64,000 bases of DNA from a virus. Every line of letters starts with the position of its first letter. The stretch's first letter is position 1. The position numbers were made by a program, and so were the translations under genes. The notes under the pieces were generated by a model. The model was not told the origin of the DNA and searched no databases. It saw only the letters and a list, made by a program, of their open reading frames with translations. Shown here in pieces: positions 6,006 to 57,890 of this stretch. Location: positions 1 through 64,000 of the IMG/VR virus record IMGVR_UViG_3300005842_000485. One strand, 5' to 3'.

Positions 6006-6308
6006 TTACCACATGAGGATCAGGAGCATCGCGAGGATCGGCCAGCCGAGAAGCGCGATAAAGGCCGTATTGCGCCAGAGACGCATGGCTTTGAGGTCAC
6101 GCTGGCTTCGGCGCAGCGTGTCCGATGCACCGTCCGCCATGCTGCGAACCTCGAAGAAGTGACAGCTTGGGGTGCGGCACAATGCCACTTGGAGCGATTT
6201 CGCCCCGTCTACACCGGTGAGGACGGAGAGCCAGTTCCGTTCGTCTTTGCAGCGCGCGCAGCGCGTGTTCAGTCGAAGTTCCGAGAACTGTCCTGCAAGG
6301 TGCGTCAT
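6006..6308 (-). CDS. Zn-ribbon protein with C-terminal TM helix
   Basis: CARC and CRTPSC motifs, hydrophobic C-terminus, ATGA overlap with the upstream gene. Confidence 0.65.
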   Translation of the reverse strand: MTHLAGQFSELRLNTRCARCKDERNWLSVLTGVDGAKSLQVALCRTPSCHFFEVRSMADGASDTLRRSQRDLKAMRLWRNTAFIALLGWPILAMLLILMW

Positions 6309-6544
6309 GCCGGTACGTAGGTCAGGAGCAGGGCGATCTCGGCGCGGATGCGTGGATCGAGATGTTCCATCGGGAGCACGTCGTAGCCGCCAAGGAGGTT
6401 GAACTGCGGCGTCTCGTCGTCTCCGAAGAAGAGCGTCGTTCCCATCTCGCCCCAATCGTCGATCTGTTCGATGTCTTTCGCGACACCGAGCGGCGCGCCA
6501 GTCGTGGCGTCGAGCACGGCATGTGTCCATCCATGGAGATGCAT
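6305..6544 (-). CDS. Acidic hypothetical protein
   Basis: C-rich leader CACCACCACTCCC-ATG. Confidence 0.65.
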   Translation of the reverse strand: MHLHGWTHAVLDATTGAPLGVAKDIEQIDDWGEMGTTLFFGDDETPQFNLLGGYDVLPMEHLDPRIRAEIALLLTYVPA

Positions 6545-6609
6545 GGGAGTGGTGGTGAAAGATTCAAAGAACGCGGTGGGTGTTCGCCCCGTGCGTGGTG
6601 AGTCGTGCA

Positions 6610-6980
6610 TGCGCCGGCAAGCCAGGCAGCCATGCTGTGGAAGTCCACTCGCCGGAGCGAGCGTGGCACCGCAGACCGAGCGCGCATCGAAGGCCGTCGA
6701 AGTGACGAGAAAGAGCGCCCTCTCGCACGATGGCGCGTGGGGGTAGGCTATCGCCCTAGGAAGGCGGCACGGACACTACGGGACTCGACCCACGGAAACG
6801 TAGAAGGCCCCCGGCGCGGGGTCAGCTCCGGGGGTTACGGCAGGAACTCCTCTCTAAACCCCAGAGGAACGAAACACCAGCGTGTGCTGGCGGCTGCGGA
6901 ACGGTGTCTACCCCCGAGCTTCAGCGAAGAAGCGCCTGATCTCCAACAACTGGAGGGGCGCTTCTCGTGACCGGGACGCA
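6610..6980 (+). ncRNA. Candidate large structured ncRNA (~370 nt), family unknown
   Basis: About 10 nested helices, a terminal closing helix, two possible pseudoknots; G-U pairs favour the + strand. Confidence 0.6.
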
Positions 6981-16223: not shown

Positions 16224-17543
16224 ATGCCGAATCAAACGACGAGCATCTGGCGCAAGCCAGGACTCCATGACTACGCCGTAGCCCTGAAGAAGAAGGGGAA
16301 ACTACCAAGAGACATCGCCGAGGCTGCGAACAAGAAGTTTCGGGTGCGACTGACGGCAGACGCCGTGACGGGCCACCTCGCCCGCAGCGTGGCCGGAGGA
16401 GCGGCTCCTTCGCCGGTGGCAGATGAGCCAACGCATGAATACCTCAGCGAGTCCGTCCTTCGGGATCGCGAGGAGATCGAGACGAAGGCAGCGTACGAAG
16501 AGTTGAAGAAGAAGTATGAGATCGCCGTCTCGCAGGCGAACGCGGTCGAGCGGCTGATGCTGCGGCTGAGCGAGGTGGTGAAGGCGCTCCCTTCGGTGAA
16601 GGCGCCAAAGCCCTACATCGTCAGCAAGGATGCGGTGAAGGAGTCGGCGGTACTCGTTGGTTCATGCTGGCACATCGGCGAGAAGATCGACGCAGAGGAG
16701 ATGGGCGGACTGAACGAGTACAACTTCGACATCTTCACGAGGCGCCTGCAGCACATCGTCGAGAAGACGATCTCGTTCACGCAGGGCAACATGTCGAACC
16801 ATATCTTTGAGGATCTTCACGTCTTCCTCACGGGCGATATGGTGTCCGGCATCATCCATGAGGAGCTGATCGAATCGAACGAGCTGCACATCGTCGATCA
16901 GGCCCTCATGGGCGCGCTCGTGACCGCACAGGCGCTTCAAGACCTCGCGCGGCAGTTCCCGAAGGTCATCGTCACCTGCGTCGTTGGGAACCACGGGCGG
17001 ACGCAGAAAGAAAAGACCTTCAAGAACAAGGGGACGAAGTCGTGGGACTACGTTTTTTACAATACGTTGGCGATGCTGCTGAAGAACCAGAGCAACATCG
17101 AGTTCATCATCCCGAAGTCGTATTGGGCGGTCGTCGATGTCCAGGGGCATCTCTTCCAAGTGCAGCACGGCGACACCGTTCGGGGCTCGCTCGGAATCCC
17201 GTTCTACGGCTTCAAGCGGGAGGTCGGAAAGTGGGCCGAGATTCACGCGGTACAGAACCGGATCGTGCGGTACTTCGTGACGAGCCACTTCCATACAAAA
17301 GCGATCCTGCAATCAGGCATCGGCGAGATGATTATGAACGCGAGCTTGAAGGGCGGCGACGAGTACGCGATCGGTCTCGGACTCTACGGCGATCCGATTC
17401 AGCTTCTGTTCGGTGTCCACGAGAAGTACGGCAAGTCCTGGGAGTTGTCGTTGAACGCGAAACACATCAATGCTGCTGACGAGGTGCGCTACCGATGTGA
17501 CCTTCGCGCGCCGATTGCGGATCAACTCGCCCTCGTCGCGTAA
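16224..17543 (+). CDS. Calcineurin-like metallophosphoesterase with N-terminal HTH/coiled coil
   Basis: SCWH, GDMV, GNHG, HGD and SHFH motifs. Confidence 0.85.
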   Translation: MPNQTTSIWRKPGLHDYAVALKKKGKLPRDIAEAANKKFRVRLTADAVTGHLARSVAGGAAPSPVADEPTHEYLSESVLRDREEIETKAAYEELKKKYEIAVSQANAVERLMLRLSEVVKALPSVKAPKPYIVSKDAVKESAVLVGSCWHIGEKIDAEEMGGLNEYNFDIFTRRLQHIVEKTISFTQGNMSNHIFEDLHVFLTGDMVSGIIHEELIESNELHIVDQALMGALVTAQALQDLARQFPKVIVTCVVGNHGRTQKEKTFKNKGTKSWDYVFYNTLAMLLKNQSNIEFIIPKSYWAVVDVQGHLFQVQHGDTVRGSLGIPFYGFKREVGKWAEIHAVQNRIVRYFVTSHFHTKAILQSGIGEMIMNASLKGGDEYAIGLGLYGDPIQLLFGVHEKYGKSWELSLNAKHINAADEVRYRCDLRAPIADQLALVA

Positions 17544-17558
17544 CGACTTGACTTCCAC

Positions 17559-17587
17559 TTGAACGATGACGCTACGGAGAGTAGTGT
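17559..17587 (+). promoter_or_regulatory. sigma70-like promoter
   Basis: TTGAAC-17-TAGTGT; the GGAG..TAGTGT element matches the rep promoter. Confidence 0.5.
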
Positions 17588-17622
17588 AAAGAGCGAACAC
17601 ACCACTTCACCTCCCTCCCGCC

Positions 17623-17901
17623 GTGCCATCGGAAGAAACCCCACAAGTCGTCCATGTGACACAGGAAGTCGTTGGTCGTTCGGTGAAGATCACGGCGTCG
17701 GTGACCGTGCGGAAGCCGGGGCCCGAGCCGTACGGTTTTCAAGAGTTCTCCGTGTACTACGGCAAGGAGTTCCCGGACAGCGTGAAGGTTGAAGAGGCGC
17801 GCAAGGACGTGGCGAAGGAAGCCGTAGCCGCGTTGCTTGATGTAGGACGCGAATACAAGAGTCAGCACGACGCTGCCCATAAGCCCCGTACCGATGCCTG
17901 A
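17623..17901 (+). CDS. Hypothetical protein
   Basis: GTG start after a CACCTCCCTCCC leader. Confidence 0.7.
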   Translation: MPSEETPQVVHVTQEVVGRSVKITASVTVRKPGPEPYGFQEFSVYYGKEFPDSVKVEEARKDVAKEAVAALLDVGREYKSQHDAAHKPRTDA

Positions 17902-18580
17902 CTACAATCCAACAGTCTTCGACTGCAAGGACATCTCCGGGCATCCGTTCCAGCTGACGGCCAAGGAACCGCGCAGTATGGGGCGAGAGCGGTTCGGGGT
18001 AGACAAGTTTCTTGGCGGCGCGAAACTACGACTCAAGAACCTCATGGAGGACGATCGGGTTCCGGGAAACGTCGAGATTCGCAGCGAAGGAGAACAGGGC
18101 TGGCGTCTCTGCGGTGAGTACCTCGTCGCGGACGAGAGCGGCAATGGGCCCTTCCGCGTGCCGAAGAAAGACTGGAAGACCGGCGAAGTCGAACGATGGC
18201 CGGACACGGGGAAAGTCAAGAGCACGTCGAAGATCGAGTGGTTCGTCGTGATCGAAGCGGACTTCGGCGAGGAGACAGAGTTCAAGCGCACCGGTGGCAA
18301 GCACGCCGGGGAGTCCTGCGGTACGGCGCGTGTATGGGATGTCTGGATGAAGCTCACGGCCTACAGGAAGCTTCGGGAGCAGATGGAGAGCGCGGCAAAG
18401 ATGGGCGGCCGCGACCCGCTGGAAGCGCGGTATGTCCTCACCTTTACGAAGGACGCTGCGCCTGCGGACATGTACCAAGTGAAGTTTGATTCGTGGGCGG
18501 ACGCGCGCTCAATGAGTGCTGCCGCCTCTTCTCTGACGACACGAGAGCAAGACTTCGACCCATCAGAATTGCCGTTCTAG
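17894..18580 (+). CDS. Putative ssDNA-binding/recombination protein
   Basis: Beta-rich body with an SSB-type acidic tail DFDPSELPF. Confidence 0.6.
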   Translation: MPDYNPTVFDCKDISGHPFQLTAKEPRSMGRERFGVDKFLGGAKLRLKNLMEDDRVPGNVEIRSEGEQGWRLCGEYLVADESGNGPFRVPKKDWKTGEVERWPDTGKVKSTSKIEWFVVIEADFGEETEFKRTGGKHAGESCGTARVWDVWMKLTAYRKLREQMESAAKMGGRDPLEARYVLTFTKDAAPADMYQVKFDSWADARSMSAAASSLTTREQDFDPSELPF

Positions 18581-18601
18581 CGGCGGCGCGCTGCTCTTTC
18601 A

Positions 18602-18882
18602 CATCCTTGGGTTCAATTGATCTGATCTAGGCTGTGCCGCGCCAACCGAGGAGACGTATGCTCGTGCCGAATCACCTGTCCATGTTGGCGACCGACGCTC
18701 TCTCATGGACGAGGGCGCTGTACAAATATCGGGCAGCGAGCACGGGGACGTGCGGCGCACCCTGGATCAGATCACCTGACAGCATCCTCTCGTGGAGGCC
18801 GTTGTAGACTCCGCATCAACAGCAGGGCGTGGTGCGGTTGTCCTCCTCGGGGATGCTGCCGGGATGGATCGAGTCTAGGATG
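18602..18882 (+). ncRNA. Structured RNA domain A (two long arms on a basal helix)
   Basis: 18602-17 pairs with 18868-82; 14-bp helix 18618-31/18761-74; 18780-88/18850-58. Confidence 0.65.
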
Positions 18883-19108
18883 CACCATCTGTCATCCGGC
18901 GCTGAAAGTCGGCCCGCCTGTGTGTATTGGGGTTTCCCGGTGCTCGCGCAGCAGGCATCGTGCCGTGTGTCGTCTGCTTTCGAGCGAGACGGCCTAGGCG
19001 TCCGGTGAAGAACCGTACGCTCACCAGCACCCCGTCGAGGTGTCCGGTACGCCGCGTTGATGACGGTACAAACGTATCAGTCGTAGAGGTGAGGCAGACG
19101 GATGGTGC
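18882..19108 (+). ncRNA. Structured RNA domain B (multibranch)
   Basis: 12-bp closing helix GCACCATCTGTC/GACGGATGGTGC enclosing at least 6 stems. Confidence 0.65.
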
Positions 19109-19129
19109 CTCCTGGATTCGAGAAGGTGA

Positions 19130-19202
19130 GGTCGCCGTAGCTCAGTTGGAAGAGCGCTGGCAGCAACGCCAGAGGCGGAGGTTCGAGTCCTCTCCGCGAC
19201 CA
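19130..19202 (+). tRNA. tRNA-like element with a 6-nt anticodon loop (identity undetermined)
   Basis: D arm GCTC-AGTTGGAA-GAGC, T arm GGAGG-TTCGAGT-CCTCT, anticodon arm CTGGC-AGCAAC-GCCAG. Confidence 0.75.
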
Positions 19203-19455
19203 CAATGAACCCAAGGGGCTGACCGTTCATCGGTCGGCCAGAGGACGCCATTGCCTGTTTGCTCATGGAGGTGAAGAACCGGGGCACACGCGCAGGATGG
19301 CTCCTCTGGCCGGGTGACGAACACCCGCACTCATTCCCCAGTCTTGAGAGACGGCGCGTAGGCCCGCACGGAGCCAGCGTACGCGCTCGCGAAATCAGGA
19401 CTCACCCGAGCGAGACGGCCGCACTACACCGAAGGTGCGGCCATCGCCGGGGACG
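19203..19455 (+). ncRNA. Structured RNA domain C
   Basis: GGCCAGAGGA/TCCTCTGGCC, GCGCGTA/TACGCGC, GGCCGCAC/GTGCGGCC and further stems. Confidence 0.55.
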
Positions 19456-19473
19456 ATCACCAAAACAATCTGC

Positions 19474-19995
19474 GTGACCCTGCTCAGCGTCGATCCCGGA
19501 ACGAGAAGCCTTGGCTGGGCTGTGTTCAAGGATGGCAAGTGCGTCGACAACGGCGTCTTTCATCCGGGCGACTGGAACGCTCCGAGTGAATGCCTGATCC
19601 GCATCGTCCGATTCATCGCTGGCAAAGAGCGTGAGATCGGTGGGATCGACTACATCGCCTGCGAGTCCATGTTCGTTGACGCTCGGCGTGGCGGGAACAG
19701 CGCACGTGTCCTGAACTGCATCCCTGATGAGATCGAAGCATGGTGCGAGGGCAAGGACATCTCGTTCCGCAAGTACGCGAACTCCACCGTGAAGCGGATA
19801 GCGACGAACAACGGCAACGCAAAGAAGCCACAGGTCTACGCCGCGATGGAGAAGTACCTGTCGCCCGCAGCACGAGAGCTGACGAAGTCCGAGCGCGAGG
19901 ACGTGACGGATGCGATCGCGATCGGCTGGACGTGCATCGTGAGCAAGCTTGGAGCAGCGGAGCCGGCACCGAAGAAGTCACGCAAGAAAGGATGA
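19474..19995 (+). CDS. ruvC: RuvC-like Holliday junction resolvase
   Basis: SVDPG..LGWA, ACE, VK..ATNNGNAKK, DVTDAIAIG. Confidence 0.9.
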   Translation: MTLLSVDPGTRSLGWAVFKDGKCVDNGVFHPGDWNAPSECLIRIVRFIAGKEREIGGIDYIACESMFVDARRGGNSARVLNCIPDEIEAWCEGKDISFRKYANSTVKRIATNNGNAKKPQVYAAMEKYLSPAARELTKSEREDVTDAIAIGWTCIVSKLGAAEPAPKKSRKKG

Positions 19996-20546
19996 ACGCC
20001 CGCCAGCGAGAACTCATCATTGAGCGCGATGGATACAAATGCTGTGAATGCCAGAAGCAATACCCCAAGGACAACTACTTTGAGTGGGAAAAGAGGCAGC
20101 ACCCGATGTCGCGGCTCACGGTGGATCACATCTGGGGCCGTGCGACCACATGGAACGGTTTGCCCGATGAACGGTGGCACATGGTCTGGACGCTCTGTAT
20201 GACGTGTCACCTAGAAAAAGACCAGGGCATCCACAAAGGCCGAGCGCGAAGAATCGCGACTCTGTACGTCACGCAATTCGAGGGGAAGGAAACGCCCGAG
20301 TACCTTGCGGCGATGGCAGCGGAAGCGGACGAGGCACCCGTGCGCGCTGAAAATCGGAAGAAGACACGGCGCGCGAAGTACCAACGCGACAAAAAGAAGG
20401 CCGGGGGATCCCCGCTCTCGAAGATGAAGGCCAAGTCCGCCGCGCTCAAGGCGAAGCCCAAGCCGGCGAACAGCAAGATTCCCGCGAAGGTCGCGGCACA
20501 GAACGCGCGCCCGGTGCTCAACACGTTTCACGTCGAGTCGCCATAG
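19992..20546 (+). CDS. HNH endonuclease with basic tail
   Basis: ERDGYKCCEC, LTVDHI, LCMTCH. Confidence 0.8.
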   Translation: MNARQRELIIERDGYKCCECQKQYPKDNYFEWEKRQHPMSRLTVDHIWGRATTWNGLPDERWHMVWTLCMTCHLEKDQGIHKGRARRIATLYVTQFEGKETPEYLAAMAAEADEAPVRAENRKKTRRAKYQRDKKKAGGSPLSKMKAKSAALKAKPKPANSKIPAKVAAQNARPVLNTFHVESP

Positions 20547-20550
20547 CGCC

Positions 20551-20579
20551 AAGGGTACGGACAATCTGTCCGTACCCTT
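20551..20579. terminator. Perfect inverted repeat
   Basis: AAGGGTACGGAC-aatct-GTCCGTACCCTT. Confidence 0.65.
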
Positions 20580-20641
20580 ACCCACGAAGGGTAGGTACGC
20601 GTTGTACTCACCCTTATCACCAATCTTCCACCTCCCTCCCC

Positions 20642-21106
20642 ATGCAGCTCACCGAGAAGACCCAACAGGCGTACCGCGAGTACGAAGCGGCCAAGAAAGC
20701 GCGCCGCGAGATTGCGAAGACCATCAAGGACACGAAGGCGACCGATGACACGCTGACGGAGCTTGAGGCGGCGAAGAAACAAGCGGCCGGCGAGTACCGT
20801 GCGGAAGCCGAGCAGTTCCAAGGCAAGCATGCGTCCCTCTTCGAGAAGCTCGAGGAAGCGAAGACGGCAGAGCAGGAAGCCAAAGCGCTCTTCGATCAAC
20901 TCTACGTCCATGCGTCAGCGGAGAGCATTGCGTCGAGCGGAGCCGTCCAGCTTTCCTTGTTCGCGGGTGACGGTCGCAAGGTGAACGTGGAGCTGGTGAC
21001 CAAGATCACGGTGGAGAAGGCGCAGCCGACGGATGCGGAGGCCGACACCGACATCGCGCTCGTGTCTGAACCGCATGAAGACCTTGCCGTGCTCGCAGAT
21101 GCGTAA
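20642..21106 (+). CDS. Coiled-coil hypothetical protein
   Basis: Helical A/E/K-rich sequence; C-rich leader. Confidence 0.75.
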   Translation: MQLTEKTQQAYREYEAAKKARREIAKTIKDTKATDDTLTELEAAKKQAAGEYRAEAEQFQGKHASLFEKLEEAKTAEQEAKALFDQLYVHASAESIASSGAVQLSLFAGDGRKVNVELVTKITVEKAQPTDAEADTDIALVSEPHEDLAVLADA

Positions 21107-53719: not shown

Positions 53720-53777
53720 GCTGGGCTGGTGGGAGGATTCGTCTCGACGCTACGGCGCGGAGCGGAACGCGGTCAAT

Positions 53778-53811
53778 CGAAGAGGACGCCGTTCCAACGG
53801 CGTCCTCTTCG
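53778..53811. repeat. Perfect 16-bp inverted repeat
   Basis: CGAAGAGGACGCCGTT-cc-AACGGCGTCCTCTTCG. Confidence 0.8.
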
Positions 53812-53839
53812 CGTCGAGGTCGAGGTGAGTTTTTTGAAA

Positions 53840-54463
53840 CTACGGAGTGAAGAACTCCAAGGCGGTGCCGCCCGCGTTTACGCGAATCTGCTGAAGCGCC
53901 GAGCCGAGCGTGAGAAGCGGAGTCAATTCGGCAGGCATCCGAGCGTCGGGGACAGTGCCACTCGCGAGGTTGTCGGCGTTCGCGGCATCGGACGCGACTT
54001 CTTCAAGCGCGGCCTGTACCTGTGTCGCAGCGATTGTGCCAGCAGGAGTGAAGGCGATGGCCGACGCTGCGTGCGCCGCCGTAGCGTCTCCGGTGTGGTC
54101 GGTCACGAGCGCGGCTGCGTCCGTCGCGACCTCTTCGACGGCTGCCTGCACGGTCGAAGCGGCGATGGTTCCGGCGGGGGTGAATGCGACAGTCGCGGCA
54201 GTCTGCGCACCAAAAGCCAGCACTTCTTTCCAGTCGCCGTTCGTGGTCGGGCTGTTCGTGGCGAGGATGTAGGTCTTGCCGGTGTCGCTCTGGATGGCGA
54301 CATCACCCTTCTGGGCGCTGAGTGCGAGGCGCGCGGCCTGGTTCGCGACGACGGAGACATCAGTGATCGCGAGATCGACGTCATAGACAGCCACGGGCTG
54401 GCCGTTGGCGTCGGTCGTGATGTACTTGTTTGCGGCTTGGACCGGAGGAAGGTTGAGGGACAT
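53840..54463 (-). CDS. Head fibre/decoration protein
   Basis: ARLAL.AQ.GD.AI..D module; two AFTPAGTIAA..VQAA.EEVA repeats. Confidence 0.75.
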   Translation of the reverse strand: MSLNLPPVQAANKYITTDANGQPVAVYDVDLAITDVSVVANQAARLALSAQKGDVAIQSDTGKTYILATNSPTTNGDWKEVLAFGAQTAATVAFTPAGTIAASTVQAAVEEVATDAAALVTDHTGDATAAHAASAIAFTPAGTIAATQVQAALEEVASDAANADNLASGTVPDARMPAELTPLLTLGSALQQIRVNAGGTALEFFTP

Positions 54464-57764: not shown

Positions 57765-57850
57765 GCTCCGGGTCGGGAAAGAAGTGGGGCACCCCTCACG
57801 TTGCGTGTCGCGGAGCCGGACGGTCAAACGACGGTTAACGGCATGCAGAC

Positions 57851-57878
57851 GCGGAGCGCGGTAGATACCGCGCTCCGC
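57851..57878. terminator. Hairpin
   Basis: GCGGAGCGCGGT-agat-ACCGCGCTCCGC. Confidence 0.65.
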
Positions 57879-57890
57879 GAGACTCGTGGG

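Follow-up and report, generated by a model that had tools for sequence, protein, structure and literature searches.

The stretch of DNA analyzed here, referred to below as the window, comprises the opening 64 kb of an IMG/VR provirus record that is 90.5 kb long (IMGVR_UViG_3300005842_000485; GC content of the window about 0.61), and the question that it raises is what occupies the gap between the stop codon (18578–18580) of a gene for an SSB-like protein and the probable start of ruvC. The gap covers positions 18581–19473 (893 nucleotides, nt) and contains no open reading frame (ORF) of at least 100 residues with a start codon, and neither Pfam nor PHROGs gave a match at E ≤ 0.05 to any of its six longest frames, in agreement with a sequence-only reading of the same DNA, which had found no credible ORF between the two genes and had placed there a large structured RNA with an embedded tRNA-like module. 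The statistics internal to the window support the conclusion that the gap is an untranslated stretch of the + strand. The interpretation favored here, tentatively and with a little less than even confidence, is that it is the boxA-protected untranslated part of a + strand recombination operon, built like a small ribosomal RNA (rRNA) operon and processed like pre-rRNA.

Folding of the gap and its stalks

When folding is scored against dinucleotide shuffles, the whole gap is the outlier of the window, with a z-score of −8.06 on the + strand and −4.30 on the − strand, as compared with +0.67 to −2.75 for 893-nt background windows (n = 13); this confirms the earlier observation of a structured, gene-free locus. 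Domains A, B, and C, which are defined in the list below, have individual z-scores of −4.8, −4.0, and −5.9 on the + strand, but it should be noted that their borders were picked to suit the helices. Background windows of 300 nt (n = 112) have a mean z-score of −0.07, a standard deviation of 1.22, and a minimum of −3.25. The local z-scores of the gap are unusual, not unique, whereas the score of the whole gap is unique. Among 168 windows, the strongest outside the gap is 16801–17100 on the − strand, inside the exonuclease gene (z −4.4).

Helices were read from the minimum free energy fold together with the pair probabilities. All of those named in the sequence-only reading are present in this fold, with mean pair probabilities of 0.95–1.00 for 18618–31/18761–74, 18882–93/19097–108, the UUCG hairpin at 18969–93, and 19236–45/19302–11. 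The features of the gap are the following:

18592–18603, + strand: boxA-like word TGCTCTTTCACA, 11 nt past the stop codon of the SSB-like gene, with the leader strand of helix P0 directly 3' of it
18604–18615, + strand: 5' (leader) strand of P0, which pairs with 19206–19217
18618–18774, + strand: domain A, in which the stalk 18618–42/18750–74 (central C.C mismatch) clamps about 107 nt
18775–18863, + strand: arm 2, an 89-nt hairpin rod with helices 18780–87/18851–58 (probability 0.99) and 18811–18/18830–37 (0.94)
18869–19121, + strand: domain B, in which the stalk 18869–93/19097–121 (central T.C mismatch) clamps a branched body of about 203 nt
19130–19203, + strand: tRNA-shaped module (19130–19203 by ARAGORN, 19131–19201 by the Rfam tRNA model)
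19206–19217, + strand: 3' (trailer) strand of P0, which also holds the first bases shared with a soil relative
19221–19451, + strand: domain C, five hairpins or rods including 19236–45/19302–11 and 19417–25/19434–42
19345–19364, + strand: possible second trailer strand, complementary to 18582–18602 (which includes the boxA-like word)
19452–19473, + strand: unpaired hypervariable spacer before ruvC, in which the soil relative has 6 substitutions and 3 insertions (6 nt) over 22 nt

The sharpest result concerns the stalks of domains A and B. The whole 64 kb was scanned exhaustively for stems in which 24 or more of 25 stacked positions are paired, with G-U pairs allowed and a span of up to 340 nt; these two stalks were the sole examples on the + strand, and the − strand had none. 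Each has 21 Watson-Crick and 3 G-U pairs and a single central mismatch of two pyrimidines. The earlier suggestion that the G-U pairs favor the + strand is thereby upheld; 31 of the 302 pairs predicted in the fold of the gap are G-U. Stalks cut by RNase III are near-continuous double-stranded stems of about two helical turns, and both stalks, with 24 pairs in 25 stacked positions each, are of this size, making them predicted sites of cleavage.

The body of domain B holds the UUCG hairpin and a hairpin with a GAAGA loop. Domain B also has two exact motifs in common with domain C, a 14-mer (18981–18994 and 19407–19420) and a 12-mer (19004–19015 and 19270–19281), although these lie in different structural contexts in the two domains. 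Two direct repeats of at least 12 nt were found in 0 of 1000 shuffles and in 0 of 69 real background windows, and the 12-mer can form a short GAAGA-loop hairpin at both of its sites (19003–19015 and about 19268–19282). However, its 11-letter core, GGTGAAGAACC, occurs with up to one mismatch at nine sites in the window (e.g. 27071, 19004, and 19270) where 0.99 would be expected. These sites are mostly in coding sequence, and codon usage may explain the excess; because the core is so frequent in the coding parts of the window, the repeat that contains it is weak evidence when taken alone.

The boxA word, the leader-trailer helix, and the tRNA-shaped module

The boxA-like word and the leader-trailer helix are absent from the list of features in the sequence-only reading and are added here. 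TGCTCTTTCACA agrees at 11 of 12 letters with the Escherichia coli boxA consensus, UGCUCUUUAACA, as printed in the part of PMC13753749 consulted, but that consensus may not be the one used by the host. It is the sole match in the 64 kb on both strands when up to one mismatch is allowed (0.05 expected; 5 of 100 shuffles contain a match) and also when up to two are allowed (1.66 expected). It heads the 893-nt untranslated stretch and is on the same strand as all neighboring genes. From the portions of two papers available here, boxA recruits NusB/E, and the complex that forms protects rrn RNA, which is not translated, against Rho (PMC12360218); boxA alone suffices to prompt formation of the antitermination complex, and the suhB and CRISPR operons are likewise preceded by boxA (PMC13753749). 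The phage would need such a device because 0.9 kb of untranslated RNA precedes ruvC and the HNH endonuclease gene.

Helix P0 is formed by 11 Watson-Crick pairs and one G-U pair with a mean pair probability of 0.93 (linker-shuffle p = 0.0036), and encloses domain A, arm 2, domain B, and the tRNA-like element. Within positions 16–22 kb, the best partner of 19202–19220 is the 5' site of P0 (−21.5 versus −16.5 kcal/mol). The second possible pairing of leader and trailer, 18582–18602/19345–19364, has a duplex energy of −28.9 kcal/mol (shuffle p = 0.002) and is present in the centroid fold, where it competes with local helices of domain C that have probabilities of about 0.4.

The embedded cloverleaf that had been proposed was recovered both by ARAGORN and by the Rfam tRNA model (RF00005), the latter with a score of 49.6 bits against a cutoff of 29 and an alignment over model positions 1–71 of 71. 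Its anticodon loop has 6 nt (AGCAAC) in place of a 7-nt loop with U33 and a readable anticodon, and ARAGORN reports it as "tRNA-???" with the anticodon "(ca)"; the acceptor stem has one C.C mismatch, and CCA is not encoded. The sequence across the loop is identical in an independent soil run from 2025 (X3 record 5). When read by eye against standard tRNA numbering, all of the positions of the L-shape core are kept (U8, A14, G15, G18, G19, G26, A44, G46, C48, T54, T55, C56, and A58). In a blastn search of plasmids only the tRNA-like part of the region was matched, the match being to a tRNA-Met gene on a Rhizobium plasmid (about 79% identity). The module is the sole tRNA-type element in the 90.5-kb record, and therefore the locus is not a decoding tRNA island. 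RNase P recognizes structure, not sequence, according to the part of PMC6186949 consulted, and the module, as judged from its sequence, is a mimic that keeps the shape recognized by RNase P without the ability to decode; it offers predicted sites for RNase P and RNase Z at 19130/19131 and 19201/19202. A role of the element as an attachment (att) site is ruled out by the location of the integrase gene at 1–1278, 17 kb from the gap.

No known RNA family covers the domains. A cmscan of 18400–19700 on both strands with permissive filters (E ≤ 10) gave rows only for tRNA, snoZ256, mascRNA, and COG2908, and a scan of the whole window against Rfam at gathering thresholds gave tRNA only, the one significant match; the remaining 26.5 kb of the record match no Rfam family. 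The covariance models of GOLLD (RF01998) and ROOL (RF03087), two families of large phage RNAs named in the sequence-only reading, gave no row at E ≤ 10, and the mascRNA row is weak (16 bits, E 4.8) and reflects the likeness to tRNA only. Several other candidates were rejected. A bacterial Y RNA (YrlA) acting with Ro60 has neither an Rfam row nor a TROVE match in the 90.5-kb record, in a search for which control genomes did give matches; a group I or group II intron or a retron has no Rfam row at E ≤ 10 and no RVT_1 match in the record; and a lambda-type nut site does not fit the placement of P0 and stalk A directly 3' of boxA, with no boxB at a nut-like distance. The CCA-adding enzyme and RtcB also had no match in the record.

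From these features we infer a course of events that would begin when RNA polymerase leaves the SSB-like ORF and transcribes the boxA word. The word would recruit host NusB/S10 to form a Rho-resistant complex, which would cross the ∼0.9 kb of untranslated RNA so that ruvC is still expressed. The leader would pair with the trailer (P0), enclosing the two stalk-clamped RNA bodies, the hairpin arm, and the tRNA-shaped module; host RNase III would then cut the stalks, and RNase P and RNase Z would cut at the tRNA mimic. These cuts would release stable folded RNAs and separate them from the ruvC message, which would retain domain C as a structured leader. A further claim, that what amounts to an imitation rRNA operon of a temperate soil phage makes novel stable RNAs (A, ∼107 nt; B, ∼203 nt; and the tRNA mimic) that act in trans on the host RNA machinery or on defense nucleases, is doubtful; that the released RNAs might serve as decoys or scaffolds for host RNA-handling factors is a guess, made with low confidence.

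A soil relative and the alternative explanations

Sequence conservation could be assessed with a relative present in the Logan contigs of a soil run, X8 (record 20), which were aligned to the window at 80% likeness. The relative is about 90% identical, and its homology with the window starts precisely at 19206 and extends across domain C and on into ruvC, so that the two are kept together. Over domain C (19206–19451, 246 nt), nine differences are itemized and up to 17 are possible (3.7–6.9%), the upper bound reflecting record totals that exceed the itemized rows by 4 and 4. In ruvC there are 19 differences over 191 nt, 16 of which are at third codon positions, i.e. in 16 of 64 codons (25%). 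Domain C is therefore less diverged than the third positions of ruvC (Fisher p = 9e-07 with 9 differences and 1.3e-04 with 17), and this comparison of two sequences shows that it is under sequence constraint, changing far less than near-neutral sites do; the segment 19345–19429 has no itemized change. Five of the nine itemized differences are at unpaired positions, two convert a G-U pair to a Watson-Crick pair, and two disrupt terminal pairs of helices, a pattern that agrees with the fold without, at nine sites, being proof of it. The border at 19206 argues that domain C and ruvC represent one evolutionary unit; the block of A, B, and the tRNA-like element would be another. The 30 letters of the relative that precede 19206 allow two readings, a T-arm-like hairpin together with an acceptor-like strand and the last part of an ORF with its stop at 19206–19208.

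Searches elsewhere added little. In phage GenBank, blastn with 17800–20600 and tblastn with the SSB-like protein gave no match, and tblastn with RuvC gave 14 records, all distant (<40% identity). Scans of IMG/VR at the level of proteins, alignments, and DNA patterns and scans of genome contigs found no relative, and a scan of metagenome contigs found only L002, which ends inside the SSB-like gene. At the protein level, relatives exist on JGI contigs of 2,991 nt (P0001 and P0004), 5,082 nt (P0002), and 14,976 nt (P0005). The stretch itself is carried by 12 public runs of rhizosphere and soil origin.

A number of observations weigh against the reading of the gap as a boxA-protected operon. The 329 nt directly upstream of 19206 in the X8 relative are unlike the window, so that the trailer strand of P0 is conserved in a context from which its partner may be missing. 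Moreover, boxA, P0, domain A, arm 2, domain B, and the tRNA mimic have been seen only as identical copies (X3 and X5); up to 8 differences of the X8 relative are not itemized, and two of the four changes at paired sites of domain C break pairs. There is no RNA run among the 12 runs with the stretch, which says nothing about expression. In arbitrary 300-nt frames the two strands of the gap score alike (z-scores of −3.9, −1.2, and −4.5 on the + strand and −3.9, 0.0, and −4.1 on the − strand), so that the strand difference is seen for whole domains only, and one coding window elsewhere reaches a comparable z-score (−4.4). With respect to boxA, the window contains three copies of the 8-nt core TGCTCTTT (1.29 expected), the consensus applied is that of E. 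coli, which may not be that of the host, and Rho termination can also be promoted by boxA words, as stated in the part of PMC12360218 consulted. The boxA word, P0, the second pairing, and the repeats shared by B and C were noticed after looking, and their p-values are therefore post hoc. Finally, GC content shows a 3-nt periodicity over 18650–18874 (0.59/0.79/0.49; p = 0.0011 for the single window and 0.008 gap-wide), which hints at coding ancestry.

Two alternatives differ from the favored reading in how much of the gap is taken to be functional. In one, which is unlikely, domain C alone functions, as the structured 5' leader of ruvC, and the block of domain A, arm 2, domain B, and the tRNA-like element is an insertion in decay that derives from a tRNA gene, now dead and flanked by junk, or from a − strand gene. 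This would account for the finding that constraint has been measured for domain C only, in a relative in which the upstream part is replaced, and for a tRNA-like element that departs from a usable tRNA by an anticodon loop 1 nt shorter and a mismatch in the acceptor stem, as expected of a recent pseudogene; the GC periodicity at 18650–18874 also fits the codon-position profile of a − strand gene. However, the block that would be dead contains both of the stems in which at least 24 of 25 stacked positions are paired, with their helices on the + strand only, boxA and P0 are at its edges, and the − strand frame concerned (18672–19076) is interrupted by one TGA, lacks a start codon, and gave no homologue. 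In the other, the gap is a single giant ornate RNA of ∼870 nt that is of the same type as GOLLD and ROOL, may form multimers, and includes the tRNA-like element among its internal domains. P0 and the pairing 18582–18602/19345–19364 could indeed close nearly the whole gap into one fold, two exact motifs are common to B and C, and the layout echoes that of GOLLD as presented in part of a preprint (bioRxiv 10.1101/2024.12.08.627333); but no GOLLD, ROOL, or other large-RNA model matches at E ≤ 10, the shared motifs have different structural contexts, and the X8 relative keeps domain C while being unlike the window upstream of 19206. We regard this alternative, which was one of two put forward in the sequence-only reading, as quite improbable. 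The mosaic border favors a modular array over one giant RNA, and the second of the earlier proposals, an array released by tRNA-type processing, fits better, having gained boxA at 18592–18603 and the two 25-position stalks, with processing itself predicted. What survives of that reading as a whole is thus a strand-specific structured untranslated locus with a nondecoding tRNA-like module; the separable domain C and the absence of a model row tell against a new giant RNA.

The remaining alternatives would place the function of the gap in DNA or in protein. It is very unlikely that the gap is a DNA-level element of the replication-recombination module, for example an origin, a site of single-strand initiation, or a hot spot of recombination that works through hairpins in the DNA. 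Its position between the SSB-like gene and ruvC and near a RepB-primase-like gene, the two pairs of exact direct repeats, and a − strand that also folds better than its shuffles (z −4.30) would be in keeping with such an element, but each of the long stems depends on three G-U pairs and is not recovered when the − strand is scanned in the same way, the gap has neither an iteron array nor an AT-rich stretch (GC 0.61), the cumulative GC skew does not change there, and the boxA word and the tRNA-like module are signals that operate at the level of RNA. The presence of one or more small or unconventional protein genes is extremely unlikely. Short ORFs of 57, 93, and 72 residues on the + strand and 88 residues on the − strand are available, and the periodicity at 18650–18874 could be cited in their favor; against this, none of the six frames matches Pfam or PHROGs, the − strand read-through frame is without a homologue, a 1-nt deletion at 19320 in the X8 relative, in a hairpin loop, would shift the frame of the 72-residue ORF (19259–19477), and the changes in domain C have no codon pattern, in contrast to those in ruvC.

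Neighboring genes and comparison with known systems

The genes that flank the gap are all on the + strand, in the order dNMP kinase, phrog_284 exonuclease, a 92-residue ORF, the SSB-like gene, the gap, ruvC, and the HNH endonuclease gene. The two that border the gap, included for context only, are as follows:

17894–18580, + strand: SSB-like gene, an ORF of 228 residues with an acidic tail ending in ELPF
19474–19995, + strand: ruvC (Pfam RuvC, 4.8e-07; phrog_159, 7e-24)

The 228-residue protein belongs to no Pfam or PHROG family, and its own family, of which 13 representatives were found at E ≤ 0.001, is very small; its members share a conserved tail at the C terminus (..S.IPF/LPF) like the tails of bacterial SSBs. 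Its AlphaFold model (pLDDT 69.8) gave no match in the PDB at E ≤ 0.001, and the rows for gp32, RPA, and MCM are weak (E > 0.07); it is labeled SSB-like because of the acidic tail and the weak gp32 and RPA rows. The GTG at 19474 is the probable start of ruvC because the differences in the X8 relative from there on fall at third codon positions (16 of 19). A search of 17500–20700 found no sigma-70-like promoter, in keeping with co-transcription of the region from upstream.

Additional features of the record were noted. The HNH endonuclease ORF (19995–20546) begins at the end of ruvC, and a perfect 13-bp stem with a 3-nt loop (20551–20579) lies 3' of its stop codon. The other RNA candidate of the sequence-only reading, 6610–6980, has no 300-nt window starting at 6301–6901 with a z-score below −2.5 on either strand. 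In the half of the window with structural genes there are long inverted repeats within 53746–54088 and at 57850–57879, which include a perfect 16-bp palindromic hairpin (53778–53811) and a 14-bp one (57850–57879); these hairpins are probably terminators. The remainder of the record (64001–90565) carries genes of plasmid or integrative and conjugative element type, including Replic_Relax, ArdC-N, RadC, a 1159-residue fusion of an SNF2 helicase with an N6-methylase, and an N4/N6 methylase, and it is possible that the record combines a phage with a second mobile element or represents a phage-plasmid.

The function of the large phage RNAs GOLLD and ROOL is not understood. If the gap is a boxA-protected operon, it would show how a phage makes such RNAs in the middle of a protein operon, by borrowing the host's rRNA antitermination signal against Rho, with the rRNA- and tRNA-processing enzymes cutting out the products. 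The boxA word, the stalks, and the tRNA mimic would then be simple handles for finding and analyzing noncoding RNA operons in uncultured phages. The locus also adds a case in which the shape of a tRNA is retained without decoding.

Known systems resemble the locus in different respects. Phage T4 has a tRNA cluster in which small stable RNAs are cut from a common precursor by tRNA-processing enzymes. Like the T4 cluster and the mascRNA of MALAT1, the locus combines non-tRNA RNAs with a tRNA or tRNA-like unit through which they would be released; unlike T4, it has no tRNA cluster. It shares with GOLLD and ROOL the character of a large, heavily paired, phage-borne noncoding RNA linked to tRNA sequences, and with GOLLD, in layout only and as presented in part of bioRxiv 10.1101/2024.12.08.627333, a variable 5' part, a tRNA in a linker, and a conserved 3' part. 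However, it matches neither covariance model, its domain C is only ∼245 nt, and its tRNA unit is a mimic, not a live tRNA. GOLLD is further characterized by assembly into homo-oligomeric cages. In the literature searched, no paper was found that links boxA to GOLLD or that describes a boxA-led noncoding RNA locus in a prophage.

The word itself has counterparts outside rRNA operons. TGCTCTTTCACA and the next five letters resemble the boxA-spacer of lambda nutR, printed together with the rrn boxA, UGCUCUUUA, in the part of PMC2724277 consulted, but the locus has no boxB hairpin at a nut-like distance, its GAAGA-loop hairpins being ∼400 and ∼670 nt downstream, and no N-like protein was identified, although no search aimed at N-type proteins was made. 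A parallel may also be drawn with the boxA of CRISPR arrays and suhB, which in the portions of PMC13753749 and PMC12360218 available here is a non-rRNA boxA that controls Rho on poorly translated RNA. The rrn operon differs from the locus, which encodes no rRNA, has no promoter of its own that could be found, has a P0 of only 12 bp, and contains a tRNA unit that is nondecoding and sits inside the leader-trailer helix; Nus binding and RNase III cutting at the locus are predicted. Nevertheless, as judged from the parts of PMC13753749, PMC2724277, and PMC10250234 consulted, the two are alike in having a boxA (here with 11 of 12 letters, and at the probable head of a long untranslated transcript) that is immediately followed by a leader strand pairing with a distant trailer, and double-stranded stalks that clamp folded bodies with a tRNA-shaped unit between them.

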